A DNA stretch of 64,000 nt from assembly GCA_964631725.1 (NCBI GenBank), contig CAZVYX010000027.1:1624-65623 (forward strand), read 5' to 3'. The position numbers were made by a program, and so were the translations under genes. This document shows, piece by piece, positions 5,969 through 64,000 of the stretch (positions within the stretch are counted from its first letter, which is position 1; each line of letters starts with the position of its first letter). The notes below the pieces were generated by a model that made no database searches, had not been told where the DNA came from, and was given only the letters and a program-made list of their open reading frames with translations. This stretch comes from an uncultured Rhodospirillaceae bacterium. Lineage in GTDB: Bacteria; Pseudomonadota; Alphaproteobacteria; GCA-2731375.

Positions 5969-6835
5969 ATGGACCCGCGCATTACACCGGCCCGCGATGA
6001 TCTAGCCGCGAACTGGCTGCGAGATCAGGTCGCGGCGGCGCGCTATGTCGATGGCTCCCCCCGCACGGTTGTTCGGGACGGCGCGCCCCTGCGTTTCTCG
6101 CCGGATCGGAACGCCGGCCTGGAAAGCCAGTTGATCCATGGCGAAACTTTCCAGGTGTACGAGGAGCGCGATGGCTGGTGCTGGGGGCAGAGTTTGACCG
6201 ACAATTATGTCGGTTATGTTCCGGCGGTGGATCTGGCGGACAACCTGCCGGCACCTGATCATCAAGTCGCGGCCCTGCACAGCCATCTCTATTCCGAGCC
6301 GGATCTGAAACGGCCGGTCGCCGGCATCATCTCCATGTCGGCGCGGGTTAAGGTTGTTGATGTCGAGGGCAAGTTTTGCCGTATTGCTTCCGGCCATTGG
6401 CTGCACTCCAGGCATTTGGTGTCCCTGGACTACAGCACCCAGGATTATGTTGGTACGGCGATGAAGTTTATCGGCGTGCCATATCTGTGGGGCGGACGCA
6501 CGGCCATGGGCCTGGACTGTTCATCACTGGTGCAATTGGCCCTGGGCATGGCGGGTATCGCGGTGCCGCGGGACAGCGATTTGCAGGAAAACGGCGCCGG
6601 CGCTCCGGGCGCGCCCGTCGCCATGGAAGACGGCCATGATTTTTCCCAGCTTGAAGAGGGCGACCTGGTGTTTTTTCCCGGCCATGTTGGCTTTTTTGTC
6701 AGCGATTGGCGCTTCCTGCATGCCAATGCGTTCGATATGCAGGTCTCTCTGCACGGATTTTCCGATGTCCTTGACCGCGCCAATCAGGATAACACCGCGG
6801 TAACTTCCATCAGGCGGATTGCGCCATCCCATTGA
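5969..6835 (+). CDS. NlpC/P60 (C40) peptidase with N-terminal SH3-like domain
   Basis: GVPYLWGGRTAMGLDCSSLVQLAL catalytic Cys region; the C-terminal His region is present. Confidence 0.7.
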   Translation: MDPRITPARDDLAANWLRDQVAAARYVDGSPRTVVRDGAPLRFSPDRNAGLESQLIHGETFQVYEERDGWCWGQSLTDNYVGYVPAVDLADNLPAPDHQVAALHSHLYSEPDLKRPVAGIISMSARVKVVDVEGKFCRIASGHWLHSRHLVSLDYSTQDYVGTAMKFIGVPYLWGGRTAMGLDCSSLVQLALGMAGIAVPRDSDLQENGAGAPGAPVAMEDGHDFSQLEEGDLVFFPGHVGFFVSDWRFLHANAFDMQVSLHGFSDVLDRANQDNTAVTSIRRIAPSH

Positions 6836-8102
6836 CCTTGCGCAGCCAATATCGGGCCATCACGGCGTGACCCGGCCGGAGACCGCTACCGGCACTTCGG
6901 CGCTGGCGCCCTTCGCCGTGCGCAGCTTTCGGTTCCAATGGCCGGCAGACTTGCTGACATCCTGGGCCTTCGAGATGGAGACCCTGATCCTGGGTTGGTA
7001 CGTGCTGGTGGAAACGGATTCGGTGCTGCTGCTGACCGCCTTCGGCTCCCTGCAATTCCTCGGCACCCTGATTTCGCCGCTGCTGGGTGTCGTCGCCGAC
7101 CGTGTGGGCCGGCGGGCGGTGCTGTGTACCATGCGGGCCATGTACGCCGTTCTGGCCCTGACCCTGATGGGTCTGGCCTTGAGCGGAACCCTGAACCCCT
7201 ATTTCGTATTGGTCATCGCGCTGCTGGCCGGTTTGGTGCGGCCCTCGGACCTGGTCATGCGGAATTCCCTGATCGGCGATACGGTGCCAAGTGCCTTGCT
7301 GGCCAAGGCCATCGGGCTGTCGCGCACGACCATGGACTCGGCCCGTATCGCCGGCGCCTTGGCGGGCGCCGGTCTGTTCGCGACCCTTGGCATCGGCCCG
7401 GCCTATGTGGGCGTCGTGGCTTTGTACGGCATCTCGCTCGTCCTGACTTTTGGCGTCGCCGGTCCGCGCCCCTCACCCGCGCGGCCGGCTTCCCAGCCGA
7501 CATCCTCCTGGCAGGAGTTGAAGGCCGGCCTGGCCTTTGTCCGGAACACGCCCGAGGTGCTGGCGCTGATGATCCTGGCCTTTCTGGTCAATCTCACGGC
7601 CTATCCGGTCTCCATGGGCCTGCTGCCCTATGTGGCCAAGGAAATTTACGCCATTGATCAGAATGGTCTGGGACATCTGGTGGCGGGCTACGCCTGCGGC
7701 GCCTTGCTGGGCTCCATCATCATGATCATGACGGGGGGCGCCCGGCGGCCAGGGCGCTTCATGGTGCTTTCCATCGTGGCTTGGTACGTTTTGATGATAT
7801 TCTTTGCCTGGCAGGAAATGAAATGGCCCGGCTTCGTGATCTTGCTGCTCACCGGCGTTTTGCAAAGCACCGCCATGATTTCCATGTCGGTGACCTTGCT
7901 GCGCATAACGCCGGAGCAGTTCCGGGGCCGCATCCAGGGCGTGCGCATGCTGGCGGTTTATGGCCTGCCCGTGGGTTTGCTGGCCGCCGGCGTTCTGGTC
8001 GATTGGTCTGGATTTTTCAGCGCCGTGTTGGTTTACGCCTTGTTGGGCATATTGTGCACAGGATGGATTGCCTTGCGATGGCGCGCCGCCATCTGGCGCT
8101 GA
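6819..8102 (+). CDS. MFS transporter
   Basis: 12-TM profile with the MFS motif GVVADRVGRR. Start uncertain. Confidence 0.7.
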   Translation: MRHPIDLAQPISGHHGVTRPETATGTSALAPFAVRSFRFQWPADLLTSWAFEMETLILGWYVLVETDSVLLLTAFGSLQFLGTLISPLLGVVADRVGRRAVLCTMRAMYAVLALTLMGLALSGTLNPYFVLVIALLAGLVRPSDLVMRNSLIGDTVPSALLAKAIGLSRTTMDSARIAGALAGAGLFATLGIGPAYVGVVALYGISLVLTFGVAGPRPSPARPASQPTSSWQELKAGLAFVRNTPEVLALMILAFLVNLTAYPVSMGLLPYVAKEIYAIDQNGLGHLVAGYACGALLGSIIMIMTGGARRPGRFMVLSIVAWYVLMIFFAWQEMKWPGFVILLLTGVLQSTAMISMSVTLLRITPEQFRGRIQGVRMLAVYGLPVGLLAAGVLVDWSGFFSAVLVYALLGILCTGWIALRWRAAIWR

Positions 8103-9364: not shown

Positions 9365-10104
9365 TCGTGGTAGAAAATCGCCGGCGGCGGGTTCGGGGAC
9401 ATGTTCTCGCTTTCCCAATCCCACAGGATGGGCGTGCGGTCGGGATGTGCGGCCCGCAAGGCGCGCAGGGCGATCATCGGTTCGTAGATCCCGTAAAGAC
9501 GGCGCAGTTCTCCGACCGCATCGAATTTCATGTCGGCCCGTAGATCAAGCAGTGGAATCTCAGGCAGTTCGGGGGTGCCGATGACTTTGACCGCCGCGCC
9601 GCGCTCGCTGAAATGACGGCCATTGGCGGCCTGTTGGCCACCGGCATCGCGGCCTGCTTCCAGGGCCGAGATCAGGCGCGATGCCAGGGGCCCCTCGGCG
9701 GAATTCTCGAACCCCTCAACCATTGCCGCTACGACTTCGGGGCCTGCTAGAACATTGCCGAAGGCGAGGCAGTCCCGACCATGTTGCTCGCCCGCCCAGG
9801 GCTGGTTCGCCTGACCGGTTCGGGCAATGACCGCGCCATCACGGCGCATGATGGCAATTTGCCGGTATTCCACATGATCGTCGGCGGCCGCCACACTGGC
9901 CAAGGCATTTTCGAGCGAGCGGCCCTCGTCCAAGGCGCGGACACCGGCAATGGCGGCGCGGGGGTTTCCCTTCGCCTGCACGACGACAATATCGCCGCCA
10001 TAACCATAGCAAGGTGAAATGCCTCCGACACCCATGGTCACCGACGTCAGGGCCAGGCCGATTTGTCCGGTCTTCTGACAATGGCCAAGAATTGAGAATG
10101 TCAT
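9361..10104 (-). CDS. DUF1028 Ntn-hydrolase-like protein
   Basis: Begins MTFSILGHC (Thr2 nucleophile signature). 247 aa. Confidence 0.7.
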   Translation of the reverse strand: MTFSILGHCQKTGQIGLALTSVTMGVGGISPCYGYGGDIVVVQAKGNPRAAIAGVRALDEGRSLENALASVAAADDHVEYRQIAIMRRDGAVIARTGQANQPWAGEQHGRDCLAFGNVLAGPEVVAAMVEGFENSAEGPLASRLISALEAGRDAGGQQAANGRHFSERGAAVKVIGTPELPEIPLLDLRADMKFDAVGELRRLYGIYEPMIALRALRAAHPDRTPILWDWESENMSPNPPPAIFYHD

Positions 10105-10175
10105 TTTTCACTGCTCCGATGACAAGTTGTTGCCGCCGGGCCGGGTGGCGTCCGGCCCGCAAGGCTTATCAGCCA

Positions 10176-10859
10176 TTAGGCGGTTGGTTCCGTCTGCCGC
10201 CAGACATCGTCCCGGGGCATATTGGGATTGCCGGGGCGTGTGTCGTAGTAGGGAATGAGCGGCTTGTAATGTTCGTAGAGGCGGCGCAGTTCGCCCACCG
10301 GTTCGTCATGCAGATCGGCGCGCAGATCGATCCAGGCATAGCTGCGTTTGTTCACCACCTTCAGGGCCGAGGAAAATTCGCCGCCCACCTGGCCGCCGGC
10401 ATCACGGCCCGCTTCCAGACATTGCATCAACCGATCGCCAAGGTCCCCGCCCTTCGTTTGCTCCCAGACTTCCTCCATCGCGGTCACCGTTGCCTCGCCC
10501 GTCAGACGGTTGCCCAGGGAGACAAAATCCTGCTTCGCGACATGGCCCTTCCAATCCTCGCTGTCCTGGCCGGTCCAGGCGGCGGTGCGGCCTTCCTGGT
10601 CGACCACCGCGACCTGACGCCATTCGCGGTGCGGATCGTTATCCGACAGCTCCCGCAGCACCTTGTCGGCGCCGTATCCCATGGACAACAGATCAAGGCC
10701 GAGGGGCCCGAAGCGGGGATCGCCGTTGGCCTGCACTACCAGCGCGCCCACGCCCGGTTTCAGGAACGGGCATTTCGCGCCGATGGCGATGGGACGGGTG
10801 GCGATGGCGATGCCGAACATCCCGGTATCGGGGCAGCGGGCGACAACGGAATAAGTCAT
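10176..10859 (-). CDS. DUF1028 Ntn-hydrolase-like protein (tandem paralog)
   Basis: Begins MTYSVVARC from ATG at 10859. Colinear with the upstream paralog (EAGRDAGGQ and GELRRLY motifs shared). Confidence 0.7.
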   Translation of the reverse strand: MTYSVVARCPDTGMFGIAIATRPIAIGAKCPFLKPGVGALVVQANGDPRFGPLGLDLLSMGYGADKVLRELSDNDPHREWRQVAVVDQEGRTAAWTGQDSEDWKGHVAKQDFVSLGNRLTGEATVTAMEEVWEQTKGGDLGDRLMQCLEAGRDAGGQVGGEFSSALKVVNKRSYAWIDLRADLHDEPVGELRRLYEHYKPLIPYYDTRPGNPNMPRDDVWRQTEPTA

Positions 10860-39794: not shown

Positions 39795-40016
39795 CTGCCG
39801 GAAATCTCCGGTACCTCTTCAGAGCAGGAAAACCAGGACAACCAGCAACGCCAGGGCCATGTTCGGCAAGTCGGCAAGTGTCGGCATGATTTCCACCCTC
39901 CAGCGGTATCGTTGGTGGAAAGCATGGCGGGGAAGGGCCCGCGGCGCAGTGACGGAAATCACCGAAAGGCGCAATATTGTGCCAAAAACCCCCTAAATGG
40001 CGCGATTTAGGCCGAA

Positions 40017-41048
40017 TTAACCCTTTTCTCGGGAATTTGCGTACCGTTGGTAAAGGCGCATGGCCAGGCCGGAAAAGCCGTCGGGCATGAAATAGACCAC
40101 GAAAAGAAGCGCGAAACCGAATGGCGGTACCGCCAGGGCGGCGGGCATGGAACCGGAGGCGGCGGGCAGGAACAGCACCAAAAAGCTGCCGATTAGGGCC
40201 CCCCACACCGAGCGGAAGCCGGCCATCACCGCCCCGATCAGCAGCAGGATGGAAAAAAACAAACCGTAGGAATCCGGCGCCACGAAATCCGCCAACAGAC
40301 CGGTCAGGGCGCCGCCCATGCCGGCGTACATGGCGGAAACGCCAAAAACCGTGGTCTTGAACATGGCGACGTTGATGCCCATGGGCGCGGCGGCGATTTC
40401 GTTGTCACGGATTGCCGCCAGGGCCCGGCCGGAACGGCTGTTGATCAGGTTGCCGGCCAGCCAGAAAAACCCGATCATGATGACAAGCGTGACGAAGTAC
40501 CAATATTGATCGTCGTTCAGCCCGGTCCAGGCGGGCGGGTCGGGCCGGTCGAGGTAAACGCCGCTGACGCCCCCCGTCCAATGCTGCAACTCGTCCAGCT
40601 TCAGGACTTGCGGCAGGACCAGGGAGAGACCCCAGGTCATCAGCATCAGATGGATCATGTTCAGGCGCAGGGCCGGCCAGCCGAACAGAAAGCCCGAGAT
40701 AAAGGAAACCACCGCCGCCACGGGCAGGGCGCCATAGGCCGACAACCCGCCATGGCTCATGGCGATCGAGGTGGAATAGGCTCCAATGGCAAAAAAGGCC
40801 CCGTGGCCGATGGAAAACTGCCCGCTCAACCCGGTCAGCAGGTTGACCCCCAAAATGGCCAGGGCCAGGGCAAAAACCAGCGCCAGGGTATAGGTGGTGT
40901 AGCCGTCCAGCACGAACGGCAAGACCACGGTCAGGCCCAGGAACAGGGCAAGGGCGCCCCATTTCCAGGCCGGGGGAATGGCCTTTGGATCGCCCTGTTC
41001 ACGGATGCGGCTGCGAAGGTCTGGCGCCGGCAAATTCGATAACGTCAC
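40017..41048 (-). CDS. branched-chain amino acid ABC transporter permease (LivM-like), orphan
   Basis: Multi-TM protein with LivM-like conserved stretches. No ATPase or binding protein adjacent. Confidence 0.65.
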   Translation of the reverse strand: MTLSNLPAPDLRSRIREQGDPKAIPPAWKWGALALFLGLTVVLPFVLDGYTTYTLALVFALALAILGVNLLTGLSGQFSIGHGAFFAIGAYSTSIAMSHGGLSAYGALPVAAVVSFISGFLFGWPALRLNMIHLMLMTWGLSLVLPQVLKLDELQHWTGGVSGVYLDRPDPPAWTGLNDDQYWYFVTLVIMIGFFWLAGNLINSRSGRALAAIRDNEIAAAPMGINVAMFKTTVFGVSAMYAGMGGALTGLLADFVAPDSYGLFFSILLLIGAVMAGFRSVWGALIGSFLVLFLPAASGSMPAALAVPPFGFALLFVVYFMPDGFSGLAMRLYQRYANSREKG

Positions 41049-41126
41049 TTCGGCCCCAATTCGCCGCTTACAAGAACGCCTCTCTTATAGCGGGCCGGCT
41101 GTCATCGTCAATGAAATCCGCGCCTG

Positions 41127-42368
41127 CTATTCCGCGATCCGGCCGGCCTCCTTGGCGTTGGCGAAGATCGCCGCCGCCACCACCGACAGGACGGCAAGAA
41201 AGGCGAAGATCCAGCGATAAGCGATCTCCGGCGCCGGGCCGCCGGCGCCGTCGAAGCTTCCGACGATCAGGCCCGAGGCGGCCTGAATGACCGCGATGCC
41301 GAGCATGACCGCGAGATTCTGGAAAGTGAGGCCGCGCCCGATTAGATGATCCGGCAGAACGGCGCGGGCAAAGGCATGGTTCAACATGACATAGCTGCCG
41401 ATGGTGGCGAACAGCAGCAACAGTATGGTCGCGGTCCAAAAATCCGGCTCTTCGAGCAGCGCCAGCAAAGCCAGTATGGCGGCGGTGGCCAGGGCGGCCG
41501 CGACGATCAGCCACTTGCGCCGGCTGACATGGTGATCAAGCCGGCCGTAAAGGGAAACGCCGATGAGCACGGCGGCGTTCATGCCCAGCAGGACATTGCC
41601 GCGGGCGACGCCGTCCAGGCCATGGATATCGGCCAGATAGGGCCCGCCCCACAGCCCGACCACGGTCAGCACAGTTGCATAGCTGACAAACTGGATCGCC
41701 GAGACCAGCCAGAGTTCGCGGTTGGCGACAACGGCCCGCAATCCCCGCAGGATATCCGGCCAGGACTCGTGCTGATTATCGGCCTCCCTCTGTCCCAACG
41801 GCGCATCGCGGACAACCAGGTAAAGCAGTAGGGCAAAAGCCCCGGTCACGCCGGCCATCACCAGGAAAGCGCCGCGCCAGCCGATGATCTCCACCGCCCA
41901 GGCCAGCGGTGTCGTGGCCAAAAGGGTGCCGCCGCCGCCGACCACGAACAGTGCGGCGGAGAGGGTGGCGAAGCGCTCCTCGGGATACCAGCGCGCGATC
42001 ACCACCATCGAGCCCATCAGCCCGGCGGCGCAGCCAATCCCCAACAGCAATCGACCGATCGCCAGAACCGCGCCGCCGTCGGCGGCGGCGAAGGTGATGG
42101 CGCCAAGCACCGCGACCAGGAACAGCCCGGTCATGGTCCGTCTGGCCCCGTACCGGTCCAACAAGACGCCGGTGGGTATTTGCGCCGCGCCGAAGGCAAG
42201 AAAGAAAAGCCCGGTGATGCCGCCCATGGTTTCGGCGGACAGGTCCAGCTCGGCCATCAGTTCCGGCGCGATGGCGGCGTTGGCGACCCGGTAAAACTGG
42301 CTCGCCACATAGGCCCCGCAGAGCACGAGATAGATCCGCAGGGCCTGGCGTCTTCCTGGTTCGGTCAT
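41127..42368 (-). CDS. MFS transporter
   Basis: 12-TM protein with the LLDRYGARR motif. Confidence 0.75.
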   Translation of the reverse strand: MTEPGRRQALRIYLVLCGAYVASQFYRVANAAIAPELMAELDLSAETMGGITGLFFLAFGAAQIPTGVLLDRYGARRTMTGLFLVAVLGAITFAAADGGAVLAIGRLLLGIGCAAGLMGSMVVIARWYPEERFATLSAALFVVGGGGTLLATTPLAWAVEIIGWRGAFLVMAGVTGAFALLLYLVVRDAPLGQREADNQHESWPDILRGLRAVVANRELWLVSAIQFVSYATVLTVVGLWGGPYLADIHGLDGVARGNVLLGMNAAVLIGVSLYGRLDHHVSRRKWLIVAAALATAAILALLALLEEPDFWTATILLLLFATIGSYVMLNHAFARAVLPDHLIGRGLTFQNLAVMLGIAVIQAASGLIVGSFDGAGGPAPEIAYRWIFAFLAVLSVVAAAIFANAKEAGRIAE

Positions 42369-45240: not shown

Positions 45241-45702
45241 CTACCAATAGTCGGCCATGATCTCCCTGGCCCAGGCCGGCTCGCTGATTTCGCCCCTGGG
45301 GGCGAAGCCGCTAAGGTAGGGCTTCAAGTCCAGCACCGGCGTGCCGTCGATGGCGTCCAGGCCCCGTACGGTCAGGGTCAGGCCGTCGACCGCGATGACC
45401 TTGCAGACGGTGATGCCCAGTCGGTTGGGGCGCCCCTTGCCGCGCTGGGCGAAGATGCCCACCTTGGGCCAATCGCCACGGCCACGGGGATGGCGGGCGC
45501 AGGAGACAATTTTTTCCTCCCCCACCTGGTGAAAATGAAACAGCACCTCGACATGGGAAAAATCTTCCAGACCGGCCAGGGCATCGGCCTGGAACTGCCC
45601 GCCATCCAGTTCGATGACCGCCTGTTCCCGGTCCCAATCATCGTCCCGTGCCTCAACGCGGCCGCCGCGCACATATCCGATGGGGGTGAGTGCAATGCTC
45701 AT
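45241..45702 (-). CDS. TsaA/TrmO (YaeB, UPF0066) family tRNA methyltransferase-like protein
   Basis: 153-aa barrel-type N-domain with PNRLG and DGTPVLDLKPY motifs. Confidence 0.6.
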   Translation of the reverse strand: MSIALTPIGYVRGGRVEARDDDWDREQAVIELDGGQFQADALAGLEDFSHVEVLFHFHQVGEEKIVSCARHPRGRGDWPKVGIFAQRGKGRPNRLGITVCKVIAVDGLTLTVRGLDAIDGTPVLDLKPYLSGFAPRGEISEPAWAREIMADYW

Positions 45703-45730: not shown

Positions 45731-48700
45731 TCAGGCTAGCTTATCCAACAACGCCTGGGCCGCCAGCAAATCCGGCGCATCCAGACCCTCGGTGAACCAA
45801 CCATGGATTGGCATTACCAGTTCGCGCGCCGCGTCCCGTTTGCCTTGATCGAGCCATAGTTCCGCCAGGGAGGAGGCGGCGCGCAGTTCCAACAGCTTGG
45901 CGGCCTGGCGGCGGGCGACTTCAATTGCGCGTTGAAAGCAGATTTCCGCATCGCCGCCCTGGGCGTGCCGAACTTCGCCGTGTATGCGGTGAAGTTCCGC
46001 TTCCCACCAACGCTCGGCGGTGTCTCCGACGACGCACAGGCATCTTTCGATCAGTTCGCCGGCTTGCTCGTGCCGACCGAGGTGCAGCAACCCCCTGGCT
46101 TGGAAACACTGGTAAATCGTTCGCATATATTCATGCAACGCTATTTCCAGGCTGGCCTCGATCTGTTCGACACCCAATGCCGCCGTATCGGCGCTTGCCG
46201 CCAATGCCGCGCCATGCATGAGACGGCTATGGTCAAGCCAATTGGGATTGGCGGCTTCAATCGAGATTTTCGTCATGGTTTCCGCGGTTGAGACCGTTGC
46301 CGCCAACTGATTGCCGGTAAGCCGCACAAGACAGGCCCAATGATAGGCAAACCCTAATGTGTTCTGGTGCTTGAGTTCGTGCGCCAGGGCCAGTCCATCC
46401 TCGACCAGCCGTGCCGCTTGCTGGCCATGGCCAAGGAATTGCGTGGCGATTGCCAGATGCATCTTGGCGGCGACACCGATGTCATGGGGGAAACGCTGTG
46501 TTGAGTCCCGGTGAGTGCGGGGGTCGAAATATTCGATGGCCTTGAGTGAGGCCTCGTGCGCCTCGGCGAATTCACCCCGGCTATTGTAGCCGACCGCCAT
46601 GCAGCGATGGCCAACGCAAATTGCCTCTCCATTGCCGGACCGTTCGGCACGGTCGAGAAGCTCGCGGGAGATATCCAGGAAGTCATGAAACCTCGAGAGT
46701 GAACCGTAGAGGGCGCAAAAGCCATGCAGTACGGTAATATGACGAGGGTCGTCGGTAAATCCGGCCAGCAAATCGCGGGCCCGTTGATAGGCCCATTCGG
46801 TTTCTTCGGCGCCATAACCAAGGTGCGCCATCGAGGCTAAGGCCAGGCAAATCTGCAGGTCGATCTCCAAGCTATCGTGCTCCCGCGACCCGGAGACCCG
46901 TTCCAGTGCCGCAAGGCCGTGTTTCGCCTGCACCGTGGCTTCGGCAACGGCCGAGCGGCCAAGGGACTGACGCCCGGCGCGCAGCCACAGATGCGCGGCG
47001 CGTTCGGGTTCCTGCCCGGCGTCATAATGATGGGCTAACAATTCAGGTTCGGTTTCCGCGCGGTTGGGAAAATCCGTTTCCAAGGCGCGGGCCACATCGG
47101 CATGAATGGTCCGGCGCCTTTCACGCAGCAACATTTGATAGGCCGCATCCTGCACCAACGCATGTTTGAATACATAGTGAACTTCCCGGCCACGCTCGTC
47201 ACGCCAAAGCAGGCCGGAGCCAAGCAGGATATCAAGATCGTGACGCAGATCCCCCTCGGATAACGGCGACGCGGCCGCCAACAATTGATGGGATACCTCG
47301 CGGCCAATGATAGCGGCGATTTCCGCGGTTCTCTTGGCCCCGCCGACGCGGTCCAGGCGTGCGGTCAGGGAAGCCTGCAGGTTGGCGGGAACTTCGCCGC
47401 TGTCGGCTTCATCGCTTGCATTGGCCAAATTATGGGTCAGCTCTTCAATATAAAGCGGCACCCCATCGCCATGGGCCATGATGTGTTTGATCTTGTCGCT
47501 GGAAAGATCAGCGCCACCAACCCCGCGGATCATCTCTTCCACCTGCGTCTGGCTCAACCGCCGGATCGGCAGGCTGGTAACGCTGGCCAGGTCACCCCAT
47601 GGCGGCGTGAATTCCGGACGATGGGTGATCACCAACAACACCGCCGCACTGGTCATGGCCTCGATCACCTGTTGCAGCAGACCCAAGGTTGTCGGATCGA
47701 TCCAATGGACATCCTCGAAGACCGCCAACACCGGCTGTTGCGCCGCCAGACCCATCAGGTGATCGATGATCGCGGTCTCCGTCCGCTGCTTGCGTTGCAG
47801 CGGCTCAAGCGCGATGGCGCCGTAGCGGTCTTCATGGGGGATCGATAACAGGGCAGCAAACAATGGTCTGACCGCGGCATCCGCATCGCCGACCTTGTCC
47901 AATAGGCTTTCAAGCTTGTCCAGTTTGGCCCCGGCGTTGTCGTCCGGTGCCAGCCCGGCGGCATACTCAAGCTGCCGGATGATGGGATAATAGGCGCTGT
48001 TGTCATGATAGGGTGCGCATTGATAGCGCAGACGCAGATGCTGCTGGCTTGCGAGATTTTCGTACAGCGCCTGAGTAAGACGCGACTTGCCGATCCCCGC
48101 CTCGCCGGAGACCATGACCACCTGACCCTCGCCGCCTTTCGCGGTCTCCCACCGGTCAAGCAGCATGTTCAACTCGCCCTGGTGCCCGATAAACGGCAGC
48201 CGGCTTTGCCCATGTGCCGCTTCGAACCGGCTGACGGTGGCGGCTTCATCACCTACCAGCCACGCCGGAACCGGTTCGGCGAAACCCTTCAGGTTCTGCG
48301 GCGGCAGGGCGGTCATATGGAAGGTCTGGCCGACCAGTTCCCTGGTGGCGGCACAGATGATCACGTGACCTGGATCGCCGACTTGCTGCAGGCGGGCCGC
48401 CCGGTTCGGAGTTGCGCCGGTCACCGCATCCGCGTCCATGCCGCCCTCGCCAACCAGATCACCAACCACAACCTGGCCGGAAGCGATACCAACCCGGGCG
48501 GCCAGGTTCTCACCCGTATTGGTTTGCACCGTCCGCACCGCCTCAATAGCGGCCAGTCCGCTGCGCACGGCCCGTTCCGCCTGATCCTCATGGGCTTGCG
48601 GCCAGCCGAAATAGGCCAGGACGCCGTCGCCCAGGAATTTTGCCACATGCCCGCCGTAGCGTGTCACGGCGCCCGCGACGGCATCCTGATAGCGGCGCAT

Positions 48701-49021
48701 GACGTCGCGCAGATCCTCCGGATCGAGTCGCTGCGACAGCGCGGTGGAACCGACCAGATCACAGAACATGACAGTCAACTGCCGCCGATCCGCCGCCGCG
48801 CCGGGCACGGCGGCGGCCGTGGCTGCCGTTGGCGCGGCACCGGCAAGGTCGGCGGCCGCCTTCCGCAGTTTCTTGCGATGGCCAAGCGAGAGCCCGAGTT
48901 CCTTCAACTCATCGTCGGTAAGATCGGGAAGAACGTCGAAATCGAGGTCGTTTTCGGCGAACAGATCAGCGTGTTTGCCGAGACCGAGCCCTTCCAGCCA
49001 ATGCCGGATATCAGCCGCCAT
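45731..49021 (-). CDS. multidomain signalling protein: SAM domain + class III adenylate/guanylate cyclase + STAND P-loop NTPase + TPR-like repeats
   Basis: N-terminal SAM (LGLGKHADLFAENDLDFDVLPDLTDDELKELGL). Cyclase core (RQLTVMFCDLVGST...GIASGQVVVGD...NRAARLQ). Walker A VSGEAGIGKS. Long helical repeat C-terminus. 1096 aa. Confidence 0.7.
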   Translation of the reverse strand: MAADIRHWLEGLGLGKHADLFAENDLDFDVLPDLTDDELKELGLSLGHRKKLRKAAADLAGAAPTAATAAAVPGAAADRRQLTVMFCDLVGSTALSQRLDPEDLRDVMRRYQDAVAGAVTRYGGHVAKFLGDGVLAYFGWPQAHEDQAERAVRSGLAAIEAVRTVQTNTGENLAARVGIASGQVVVGDLVGEGGMDADAVTGATPNRAARLQQVGDPGHVIICAATRELVGQTFHMTALPPQNLKGFAEPVPAWLVGDEAATVSRFEAAHGQSRLPFIGHQGELNMLLDRWETAKGGEGQVVMVSGEAGIGKSRLTQALYENLASQQHLRLRYQCAPYHDNSAYYPIIRQLEYAAGLAPDDNAGAKLDKLESLLDKVGDADAAVRPLFAALLSIPHEDRYGAIALEPLQRKQRTETAIIDHLMGLAAQQPVLAVFEDVHWIDPTTLGLLQQVIEAMTSAAVLLVITHRPEFTPPWGDLASVTSLPIRRLSQTQVEEMIRGVGGADLSSDKIKHIMAHGDGVPLYIEELTHNLANASDEADSGEVPANLQASLTARLDRVGGAKRTAEIAAIIGREVSHQLLAAASPLSEGDLRHDLDILLGSGLLWRDERGREVHYVFKHALVQDAAYQMLLRERRRTIHADVARALETDFPNRAETEPELLAHHYDAGQEPERAAHLWLRAGRQSLGRSAVAEATVQAKHGLAALERVSGSREHDSLEIDLQICLALASMAHLGYGAEETEWAYQRARDLLAGFTDDPRHITVLHGFCALYGSLSRFHDFLDISRELLDRAERSGNGEAICVGHRCMAVGYNSRGEFAEAHEASLKAIEYFDPRTHRDSTQRFPHDIGVAAKMHLAIATQFLGHGQQAARLVEDGLALAHELKHQNTLGFAYHWACLVRLTGNQLAATVSTAETMTKISIEAANPNWLDHSRLMHGAALAASADTAALGVEQIEASLEIALHEYMRTIYQCFQARGLLHLGRHEQAGELIERCLCVVGDTAERWWEAELHRIHGEVRHAQGGDAEICFQRAIEVARRQAAKLLELRAASSLAELWLDQGKRDAARELVMPIHGWFTEGLDAPDLLAAQALLDKLA

Positions 49022-49133
49022 GCGATTTCCTCCGCCGCCATCGTATCAGACAAACCTGATGGGTAGGAGAGCTTTCCGACCGGGGCCTCCCTTTCGGCGG
49101 GGGACCGGATCCCATCGGACAAAACAGGCAAAC

Positions 49134-49162
49134 AAAAAGCCGGCCAAATTGGCCGGCTTTTT
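49134..49162. terminator. bidirectional rho-independent terminator (GCCGGCC-aaatt-GGCCGGC flanked by A and T tracts)
   Basis: aaaaagccggccaaattggccggcttttt. Confidence 0.6.
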
Positions 49163-49183
49163 GCCGTCAATATTTGCTACACC

Positions 49184-49419
49184 TTAGCGGCGCAAAAACG
49201 GCTCGGTGACGAACTTGCCAGGCACCATGACCATGGCGACATGGGGCGCGGGGACGGCGGCTGTATGCGCCGGTCTATCCTTGCCAGGTTTCGCCAGGCG
49301 CTCGGACAGGGAGATCAGGGCCGAGGCGATGATATTGGCGATCGGGGCAATGGTGTCGCTCAAGGTTGATACCAGCAGGGCGCTGGGGGCAATGGGGGCA
49401 TTGAACTTTTGATGGGTCA
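49184..49419 (-). CDS. small hypothetical protein (78 aa)
   Basis: ATG at 49419 follows the RBS-like GGGAGA. The terminator lies just downstream. No recognisable family. Confidence 0.35.
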
Positions 49420-49689
49420 TGGCAGATCTCCCTTGTTTGATGCGCATGAACAAATCCGGTTTCATCGGGCTCATATAGGCCTGGTTGCGGCATAGGAAAC
49501 GCGCCAATATTGCATTGCTGCCCTGCGAAAATTGCATGCCTGAAGCGTCCGGATTCGTCTCGAGTGAAGGGCGATTTTTCCAACTGACCTAATGGAAAAT
49601 TCTGTGTTACAGTCCGGCCATAAACCAACAAAGACGGTCACGGGAAAATCCCGGACCTGACAATGAAAATACCGGGGTGGTGGGGTCTC

Positions 49690-63009: not shown

Positions 63010-64000
63010 TCAGGCGCCCAGCCGGATTTCGTCCATTGCGGGCTGCGGCGCCAGCCGCTCCAGCTTCGCCACCACGGTGAAGATTTCGTCGGCGGCGACC
63101 GGCGGGCTGAAATAGAACCCTTGCGCGTACTGGCAACTGTTGGCGCGAAGAAACTGCAACTGCTCATCCGTCTCCACGCCTTCCGCCACTACGTGCAGAT
63201 CCAGATGCTGCGCCAGGGCGATCACGGTACGCACGATCGCGCCGTCGGATGCGTCATGGTTTACATCGCGCACGAAGGACCGGTCGATCTTCAGGGCATC
63301 CAGGGGGAACCGTTTCAGATAGGCCAGGGACGAATAGCCGGTGCCGAAATCATCAATGCTTACACGCACGCCGGCGGCGCTGAGGCGCCCCAGAATGCCG
63401 GCCGCAGCCTCCGGATCCTGCATAATCGAGCTTTCCGTCAGCTCCAGTTCCAGCAGGGAAGCATCCACGCCGGTCTTTTCGATCCAGCTTTGTACGTGAT
63501 CCAGCAGGTCATCCTGGCTGAATTGATGTGCCGACAGATTTACCGCAACACGCATGGTCGGCATGCCCAGGCGTTGCCATTCCGTGATCTGGTTGCAGGC
63601 CATGCCCAGGATCAGGTCGCCCAGCGGCGTCATGAGGCCCAATTCCTCCGCCAGGGGAATGAATTGATCCGGTTGGATCAAGCCGCGGTCGGGATTATTC
63701 CAGCGCACCAGCGCCTCCAGCCCGACGACCTCGCCATTGTTGAGATCGACTTGCGGCTGGTAGTACAACTCGAACTCCTGGTGTCGGATTGCCCGTTGCA
63801 GGGCGACGCCAAGCCCGATGCGGCGCAGGGCGGAGCTGTTCATGTCGGGGCGGTAAAATTGATAGCCTTGTCCGCCCGTCTGCTTCGCCTGGTACATGGC
63901 GGCATCGGACAGGCGCAACAAATCATCGGCGCCCTCGGCGTCATCGGGGAACAGTGCGATGCCTATGCTGGGCGATACGGTGGCGGCATTTTCGCCGATC
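63010..64000 (-). CDS. GGDEF-EAL c-di-GMP signalling protein (EAL domain complete, GGDEF C-terminus visible; runs off window end)
   Basis: EAL motifs (EALVRW, DDFGTGYSSL, EGVE). Reading continues upstream to the window end with GGDEF-type sequence (...SIGIALFPDD...). Confidence 0.8.
   Translation of the reverse strand, partial: IGENAATVSPSIGIALFPDDAEGADDLLRLSDAAMYQAKQTGGQGYQFYRPDMNSSALRRIGLGVALQRAIRHQEFELYYQPQVDLNNGEVVGLEALVRWNNPDRGLIQPDQFIPLAEELGLMTPLGDLILGMACNQITEWQRLGMPTMRVAVNLSAHQFSQDDLLDHVQSWIEKTGVDASLLELELTESSIMQDPEAAAGILGRLSAAGVRVSIDDFGTGYSSLAYLKRFPLDALKIDRSFVRDVNHDASDGAIVRTVIALAQHLDLHVVAEGVETDEQLQFLRANSCQYAQGFYFSPPVAADEIFTVVAKLERLAPQPAMDEIRLGA

Follow-up and report, generated by a model that had tools for sequence, protein, structure and literature searches.

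We describe a gene on a 64,000-nucleotide stretch of DNA from an uncultured Rhodospirillaceae bacterium (positions 1,624 to 65,623 of contig CAZVYX010000027.1, assembly GCA_964631725.1). We call the whole stretch the window and use its coordinates throughout. On the minus strand of the window lies an open reading frame (ORF) that runs over 1096 codons from an ATG to a TGA stop at 45731-45733. It encodes a single large protein with a sterile alpha motif (SAM) domain, a class III nucleotide cyclase, a STAND NTPase and a solenoid that resembles tetratricopeptide repeats (TPR). An earlier note, made from the letters alone, had proposed these parts in this order, and the 1096-residue ORF and all motifs quoted there are present exactly as described: FCDLVGST at residues 86-93 (nt 48743-48766), GDG at residues 131-133, NRAARLQ at residues 206-212 (nt 48386-48406) and GEAGIGKS at residues 306-313 (nt 48083-48106). 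Pfam places SAM_1, Guanylate_cyc and AAA_16 in the same order, each with a score well above its cut-off. The protein is an intact, ordinary member of a very large and populous alphaproteobacterial family. It is most likely a stand-alone adenylate cyclase that is gated by a ligand and activated by STAND oligomerisation.

For the structure we used an AlphaFold2 model of the monomer, built on 119 homologs, with a mean predicted local distance difference test score (pLDDT) of 90.8 and a predicted TM score (pTM) of 0.76. Confidence is low in three stretches: residues 63-76 and 261-273, which lie in the two linkers and have a pLDDT below 50, and a loop of the cyclase domain at residues 188-197. The N-terminal SAM domain is recognised by SAM_1 (residues 4-58, E 3e-12, 47 bits, cut-off 23) as well as by SAM_2 (E 1e-9, 38.9 bits, cut-off 20.5). 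It is modelled as a bundle of helices (residues 2-11, 15-23, 36-41 and 46-60; pLDDT of the block 86-97), and the PDB sequence matches of this region are the SAM domains of Shank2/3, tankyrase, BicC1 and SARM1. The first linker is the least conserved segment of the protein, with 28% gaps in the homolog alignment. The cyclase domain behind it (Guanylate_cyc at residues 80-246, E 7.5e-19, 68.5 bits, cut-off 21.9) has the guanylyl cyclase Cya2 as its best PDB sequence match (2w01, E 1e-24). Its model superimposes on 2w01, 6sir, 1wc*, 3r5g and 1ybt with TM scores of 0.8-0.91 and root mean square deviations of 2-3 Å.

A second linker leads to the P-loop module. AAA_16 covers residues 277-464 (E 1.3e-19, 71.8 bits, cut-off 32.6), and the model adds a helical domain (HD) and a winged-helix domain (WHD) to this nucleotide-binding domain (NBD), the WHD with a beta-hairpin wing at residues 605-618. 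By its motifs and its predicted fold, the module is a bona fide STAND nucleotide-binding oligomerisation domain (NOD; NBD-HD-WHD, residues 277-630). The NOD of STAND proteins has been defined in PMC6468293, where the ADP/ATP switch of the STAND-TPR proteins PH0952 and MalT is also described. A Foldseek search of the PDB ranks first 6MFV, which is the STAND ATPase PH0952 in its resting state, TPR sensor included (760 columns, E 6e-13). Further fold matches are Apaf-1 (E ~3e-8) and Avs3 (E 7e-9), so that the earlier assignment to the STAND NTPases is borne out by motifs and by fold.

For the C-terminal 470 residues, sequence alone gives a borderline ANAPC5 match (residues 829-898, 23.2 bits, cut-off 23). 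The model places the same residues, with high confidence, in a continuous alpha-solenoid, and homologs show TPR_12 and related matches there. The stretch of about 550 residues of helical or TPR-like repeats read earlier from the letters finds its counterpart in these roughly 24 helices (residues 631-1096). The coordinates of all parts are collected in Table 1.

Table 1. Parts of the SAM-cyclase-STAND-TPR gene and the signals and gene that flank it, in window coordinates (all on the minus strand).
Feature	Position	Strand	Basis or remark
Whole SAM / class III cyclase / STAND NOD / TPR gene	45731..49021	(-)	ORF listing, translation, Pfam
SAM domain, aa 1-60	48842..49021	(-)	Pfam, PDB sequence matches, helical bundle
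Ala/Pro-rich flexible linker 1, aa 61-77	48791..48841	(-)	pLDDT <50 for aa 63-76
Class III (CHD) cyclase catalytic domain, aa 78-259	48245..48790	(-)	Pfam, PDB matches, fold, residues
Flexible linker 2, cyclase to NOD, aa 260-276	48194..48244	(-)	pLDDT <50 for aa 261-273
STAND nucleotide-binding domain, aa 277-489	47555..48193	(-)	AAA_16, motif invariance, strands and helices of the model
STAND helical domain, aa 490-544, GxP = G520-V-P522	47390..47554	(-)	Model and alignment
STAND winged-helix domain, aa 545-630, F618-K619-H620 (MHD-like His)	47132..47389	(-)	Model, alignment, fold match
Arm and TPR-like alpha-solenoid, putative sensor, aa 631-1096, ~24 helices	45734..47131	(-)	Model, fold, homologs
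Shine-Dalgarno GGAGGA, 7 nt 5' of the cyclase-gene ATG	49028..49033	(-)	
Intrinsic terminator of upstream 117-aa ORF, 16-bp stem and T-run	49131..49165	(-)	
Downstream 153-aa TrmO_N-like gene with its own GAGGA	45241..45702	(-)	Starts 28 nt past the cyclase-gene stop

We read the conservation of individual residues from an alignment of the 120 best homologs (119 for GxP, R468 and H620). The metal-binding aspartates D88 and D132, the phosphate-binding R176 and the transition-state residues N206 and R210 are each found in all 120, and the phosphate-binding K245 is kept in 118. At the first base-specifying position, that of K128, 109 homologs have Lys and 11 have Arg. Hence the catalytic residues, which the earlier note had allowed might be degenerate, are intact and invariant or nearly so across the family. 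Close to N206 the protein carries two private substitutions, R207 and A203; the latter (nt 48413-48415) stands where 100 of 120 relatives have Glu. The NOD is no less complete. Walker A (G306-S313, with K312) and Walker B (VFED, residues 434-437, with E436-D437) are invariant, and so is the H-W-x-D that follows Walker B (H439, W440 and D442). The sensor-1 arginine R468 and P522 are present in 119/119 homologs, G520 and H620 each in 117/119, and in the model R468, GxP and H620 sit at the expected positions of the secondary structure.

Which nucleotide the cyclase uses is a more delicate matter. Canonical base-specifying pairs are Lys with Asp or Thr for ATP, and Glu with Cys, Gly or Ser for GTP. 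We mapped the two positions by aligning the protein to the wild-type guanylyl cyclase 6sir and to the specificity-converted mutant 5oyh. K128 falls on the Glu/Lys switch that separates 6sir from 5oyh in the guanylyl to adenylyl conversion. The Cys/Asp switch aligns with A199 if no gap is introduced, or with D198 if a gap of one residue is allowed. Of the 120 homologs, 112 have Ala at position 199 and 81 have an acidic residue (Glu or Asp) at 198. As far as the alignment can tell, the Lys-Ala pair is non-canonical and conserved across the SAM-cyclase-STAND-TPR family, and the most likely substrate is ATP.

Conservation is uneven along the protein. Mean identity to the query is 66% in the cyclase, which is the most conserved domain, 51-53% in the SAM domain, the NBD, the WHD and the last 90 residues, 36% in the arm and only 21-29% in the middle TPR region (residues 781-1005). 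Hence a variable middle lies in front of a conserved C-terminal cap (residues 1006-1096). This gradient would fit a constant output and switch joined to a sensor that diversifies among paralogs, and the conserved cap is a candidate for an autoinhibitory contact.

The boundaries of the gene are well supported. The ATG start is credible because it is preceded by GGAGGA and, further upstream, by a terminator, and because homologs align with the protein from residue 1-5. The strong terminator closes an upstream 117-aa ORF and therefore gives the cyclase gene its own 5' transcription boundary. The upstream ORF itself (49184-49537, minus strand) has no Pfam match and ends in this very strong intrinsic terminator; an ORF lies likewise at that upstream position on ENA contig L087, which encodes an identical cyclase protein. 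On the downstream side, no terminator was found between the cyclase gene and the TrmO_N-like gene, and the two may be co-transcribed. The pairing is not conserved: loci L001 and L085 have other downstream genes, and TrmO_N is absent from the recurrent neighbour families of related loci. An antisense ORF of 353 residues (48005-49066, plus strand) with a GC content at third codon positions (GC3) of 0.75 overlaps the SAM and cyclase coding region. We do not regard it as a gene but as a shadow ORF, as is usual in DNA of 62% GC. Recent horizontal transfer of the cyclase gene was also considered and rejected, since its GC3 of 0.69 differs too little from the 0.73-0.82 of its immediate neighbours.

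Our searches show that the gene has a great many relatives. A protein search returned at least 8000 candidates at E <= 1e-10, of which we examined the 120 best clusters. SAM_1, Guanylate_cyc and AAA_16 occur together in 116 of these, in proteins of about 1100 residues with 42-67% identity. The earlier note had called the SAM domain unusual in bacteria. This holds for bacteria generally, but not within the family, where the domain is found in those 116 of 120 homologs and where 73 of the best 80 loci in species-representative genomes align from the SAM region onward. The best 80 were drawn from 519 relatives in these genomes. Most of them belong to Bradyrhizobium, Mesorhizobium, Xanthobacteraceae, Rhodospirillaceae and Kiloniellales, with a few from beta- and gammaproteobacteria, and several genomes occur two or three times. 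The nearest relative in the species-representative genomes is only 44-45% identical, and hence the source species is absent from them. An identical protein (P0001) is found on an ENA metagenome contig, and the closest named relative among the 120 best clusters is a partial protein from a Rhodospirillaceae metagenome-assembled genome (MAG) with 64% identity (P0057).

Relatives are also common on plasmids. In PLSDB they occur on 329 plasmids (119 from Sinorhizobium and 99 from Rhizobium), and the megaplasmids of S. meliloti have 2-4 matching places each, including full-length copies with 42% identity that are annotated as 'AAA family ATPase'. In RefSeq and GenBank, family members go by this name or by 'Adenylate cyclase 2'. 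According to Seshadri et al. 2015 (PMC4653623), root-nodule bacteria are enriched in the combination of SAM (PF00536), cyclase (PF00211) and AAA_16 (PF13191). The SAM-cyclase-STAND architecture is therefore already known, having been noted in rhizobia in 2015, and it is common. In the literature we found no link between the family and a named S. meliloti cya gene.

Some relatives depart from the standard layout. A query with the SAM domain only returned 87 short SAM-only proteins, several of them on long contigs. They could be pseudogenes, genes split in nature or artefacts of frameshifts in long reads. On a 1.3-Mb contig (L084:5001-8358), a 101-aa SAM-only protein (P0143) is encoded 29 nt 5' of a 1007-aa ORF with a weak cyclase match and AAA_16; judging from the sequence, the two are a split version of the architecture. 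One long-read MAG (MFD05521.bin.1.111) contains the three paralogs L012, L018 and L057. At L018 the SAM domain has an ORF to itself (9998-10324), in a different frame from the cyclase ORF, whose start it overlaps, and at L057 an ORF that begins at 10274 starts at the cyclase motif. Both cases are likely to reflect a frameshift, either real or an assembly error. In Bradyrhizobium, large ORFs close to the family gene at L023 (+1, 1060 aa) and L064 (+4, 1083 aa) cluster together by BLAST and may be family paralogs that arose by local duplication.

The genomic surroundings give no hint of a dedicated partner. Within the window, we scanned the genes between 28 and 64 kb for context. They encode acyl-CoA dehydrogenases, short-chain dehydrogenases/reductases, an acyl-CoA synthetase, M24 peptidases, an ABC importer, an MFS transporter, a Dyp peroxidase and a glyoxalase. 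Nearest to the cyclase gene are the TrmO-like, Dyp peroxidase, glyoxalase and ABC transporter genes. A tblastn search with the 1096-aa protein found no second cyclase in the window. The only other second-messenger gene in the scanned region (63010-63921, minus strand) encodes a stand-alone EAL-domain protein of 303 residues, a putative c-di-GMP phosphodiesterase (Pfam E 4e-80). AT skew shows two strong excursions in the window, +0.27 at 40001-42000 and -0.25 at 6001-8000, the first of which overlaps genes for membrane transporters (MFS and branched-chain amino acid permease).

To see whether any neighbour recurs, we compared four genes to either side at 65 related loci by BLAST clustering and assigned 148 immediate neighbours to Pfam families. 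No conserved neighbour was found at the 65 loci: the BLAST clusters have at most four members and no fixed position. The 148 immediate neighbours spread over 129 Pfam families, the commonest being IS110 transposases (4), LysR regulators (3) and Crp-type regulators (3). Even the homologs with 65-67% identity (P0005 and P0002) have contexts that differ from that of the window. The Crp-type genes, which encode cNMP_binding and HTH_Crp_2 domains, accompany a small subclade of the SAM-cyclase-STAND genes. Two lie directly downstream on the same strand (L073, 11548-12306, and L080, 13387-14085) and one lies two genes away (L039, 4581-5279). These neighbours are candidates for cognate receptors of the cyclic nucleotide (cNMP).

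How might such a protein work? What our analysis shows is how the domains are arranged and folded, that the residues of catalysis and of the switch are intact, that the linkers are flexible, how conservation is distributed and that operon partners are lacking. From this we infer ligand gating, activation through oligomerisation, a role for the SAM domain and ATP as the substrate. Our preferred explanation, to which we assign a probability of about 0.6, is that the protein is a stand-alone cytoplasmic sensor with a STAND (NLR-like) switch that makes a cyclic nucleotide, most likely cAMP. At rest, the NOD would be closed on ADP and held there by the arm and the TPR solenoid. The active sites of class III cyclases form only across a dimer interface, and hence the single cyclase domain of a monomer should be inactive in this state. 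A ligand, either a small molecule or a protein, would bind to the variable middle TPR repeats and lift the autoinhibition. The NOD would then exchange ADP for ATP and oligomerise, and the cyclase domains on their flexible tethers would thereby meet and pair as catalytic dimers. SAM, at the N-terminus, could serve as an auxiliary interface for homo-oligomerisation or tethering. The cNMP would act in trans: its receptors, of the Crp family or of another kind, would be encoded at other places in the genome. In the model, the two linkers of low pLDDT suit an effector on a tether. Ligand-induced oligomerisation of the NOD is the most economical explanation because it accounts at once for flexible tethers, for class III cyclases that work only as dimers and for the ADP/ATP switch of STAND-TPR proteins (PMC6468293).

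Several points weigh against this explanation. First, the product nucleotide, its main uncertainty, cannot be read off with confidence because A199 is non-canonical and an acidic residue is found only at the neighbouring position 198. Second, the isolated cyclase domains of the related M. tuberculosis protein Rv0386 are active on their own, and control by the NOD is for this reason plausible but unproven. Third, R207 (nt 48401-48403), directly beside the catalytic N206, is private to our protein, the residue being Leu in 118 of 120 relatives. Fourth, a hidden Markov model built from Crp-like sequences detected no cNMP receptor in the window. Fifth, the AlphaFold model is of a monomer only, so that oligomerisation, cyclase dimerisation and self-association of the SAM domain stay inferred. 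Lastly, the earlier description of such proteins as poorly characterised stands, as the literature we searched contained no experimental study of any SAM-cyclase-STAND-TPR protein.

The strongest alternative keeps the architecture and the switch, and changes only the product, which would be cGMP, a pyrimidine cNMP or a mix. We consider this unlikely. It could explain the family-wide non-canonical Lys-Ala at the two base-specifying positions, and it would agree with a guanylyl cyclase, Cya2, being the best PDB sequence match. In the literature, rhizobial Clr is described as sensitive to both cAMP and cGMP (PMC10127613). On the other side, adenylyl cyclases have Lys at the position of K128, whereas guanylyl cyclases have Glu there, Cya2 and wild-type RhGC included. 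The Glu, Cys or Gly that mark a guanylyl cyclase are absent.

One could also argue that the whole family serves bacteria as an NLR-type surveillance system that is not tied to any fixed operon. The diversified TPR regions of the expanded paralogs would sense different foreign or host-derived molecules, NOD and SAM polymerisation would build a 'cyclasome', and the effectors would act in trans. We think this improbable. If it were true, the cyclasome would flood the cell with a possibly non-canonical cNMP that is read by trans-encoded effectors, and its immune or symbiosis-sensing logic would parallel that of apoptosomes and SARM1.

A more conventional defence function, at which the earlier note had hinted, appears a little less probable still. 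Here the protein would be an NLR-like anti-phage or conflict sensor, whose TPR region detects a phage protein or another foreign protein and whose cyclase raises a cNMP alarm for a toxic effector, as in Pycsar or CBASS. The cyclase domain does match the PycC models of PADLOC (E 5e-19), but this match covers only the catalytic core and is no better than that to the generic Pfam cyclase. The fold of NOD and TPR is similar to that of Avs3 and the middle TPR repeats are variable. At related loci, the neighbours include IS110 transposases, reverse transcriptases and mad genes. However, no effector gene lies next to ours, the genes scanned from 28 to 64 kb serve catabolism or transport, and a conserved neighbour is missing from the 65 loci. 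PADLOC labels some neighbours 'PycTIR' or 'TIR effector', but these are Crp transcription factors that were matched only through their cNMP-binding half. Multiple paralogs on chromosomes and megaplasmids of large-genome Alphaproteobacteria are, in addition, the pattern of housekeeping signal transduction. The hint at defence is not supported by this context.

Even less probable is a pseudo-enzyme or scaffold, in which the cyclase domain would only bind nucleotide or dimerise, and SAM and TPR would deliver the real output by contacts with other proteins. Other multidomain conflict systems are known to contain inactive cNMP cyclase domains (PMC7159879), and the private substitutions R207 and A203 speak for this reading. 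But all seven catalytic positions are intact and (near-)invariant in the 120 homologs, and no other domain is as conserved as the cyclase. Finally, a TOMM-associated kinase/cyclase fusion (TIGR03903) that regulates the biosynthesis of thiazole/oxazole-modified peptides can be set aside as very improbable: although positions 262-1267 of the model align to residues 56-1055 (508.8 bits, E 4e-152), the score stays below the curated cut-off of 705.75 because a SAM domain replaces the N-terminal kinase (model positions 1-261 are unmatched and there is no Pkinase match), and, of the ORFs that were scanned in the 28-64 kb region, none was a cyclodehydratase, dehydrogenase or precursor-like gene.

The family to which the protein belongs couples an NLR-like switch with a cyclase. 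Alphaproteobacteria with large genomes have many class III cyclases, most of which respond to signals that are not known; in S. meliloti alone 28 have been counted (PMC13001267). From a single characterised member one would learn how a STAND module can control an enzyme that requires dimerisation, what a SAM domain does in bacteria and what a cyclase with the conserved Lys-Ala pair produces. The gene described here is an intact and well-delimited example, and its value is that of a clean template for constructs rather than that of a discovery.

How does the protein compare with known systems? Its closest counterparts are the rhizobial and other alphaproteobacterial proteins with SAM, class III cyclase and AAA_16 (and TPR). 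They have the identical four-part architecture, are about 1100 residues long and are 42-67% identical over their full length. At the level of sequence they are paralogs or orthologs of ours. The invariant catalytic and STAND residues are the same, and the middle TPR region drops to 21-29% identity. TIGR03903 shares with our protein about 1000 homologous residues, which make up the cyclase-NOD-TPR body; that family has a Ser/Thr kinase where our protein has SAM, and the TOMM genes are absent here. The M. tuberculosis proteins Rv0386, Rv1358 and Rv2488c likewise begin with a class III cyclase that is followed by a P-loop ATPase of the MalT/AAA_16 type. Rv0386, in the work of Castro et al. 2005, is reported to have non-canonical substrate-specifying residues. 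TPR repeats follow its ATPase (bioRxiv 10.1101/2024.03.06.583649). Proteins of the Rv0386 type have no SAM and carry a LuxR-type DNA-binding domain at the C-terminus, whereas ours ends in a conserved TPR cap, and no helix-turn-helix match in it reached the threshold in Pfam or NCBIfam.

More distant systems share single modules. PH0952 and MalT have the same NBD-HD-WHD-arm-TPR order, fold and ADP/ATP switch motifs at a sequence identity of about 12%, but their effector is a DNA-binding domain, whereas that of the 1096-aa protein is the cyclase with SAM. PycC of Pycsar has a homologous catalytic core, lacks STAND, TPR and SAM, and is paired with an adjacent gene for a cNMP-binding effector. No effector of the Pycsar type (cNMP-binding with TIR or transmembrane segments) was found in the window, and at the 65 loci all neighbours with a cNMP-binding domain are Crp-type regulators. 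An analogy is offered by SARM1 and other SAM-scaffolded enzymes, in that SAM is linked to an enzyme that needs self-association, with no homology outside the SAM domain. The protein therefore belongs to the class III cyclases, the STAND NTPases and the SAM family, with all of their defining features that sequence and a monomer model can show, except a clearly canonical second specificity residue. It is not a TIGR03903, Pycsar or Rv0386-type protein, and with TIGR03903 and the Rv0386 type it has in common the logic of a cyclase followed by a NOD.

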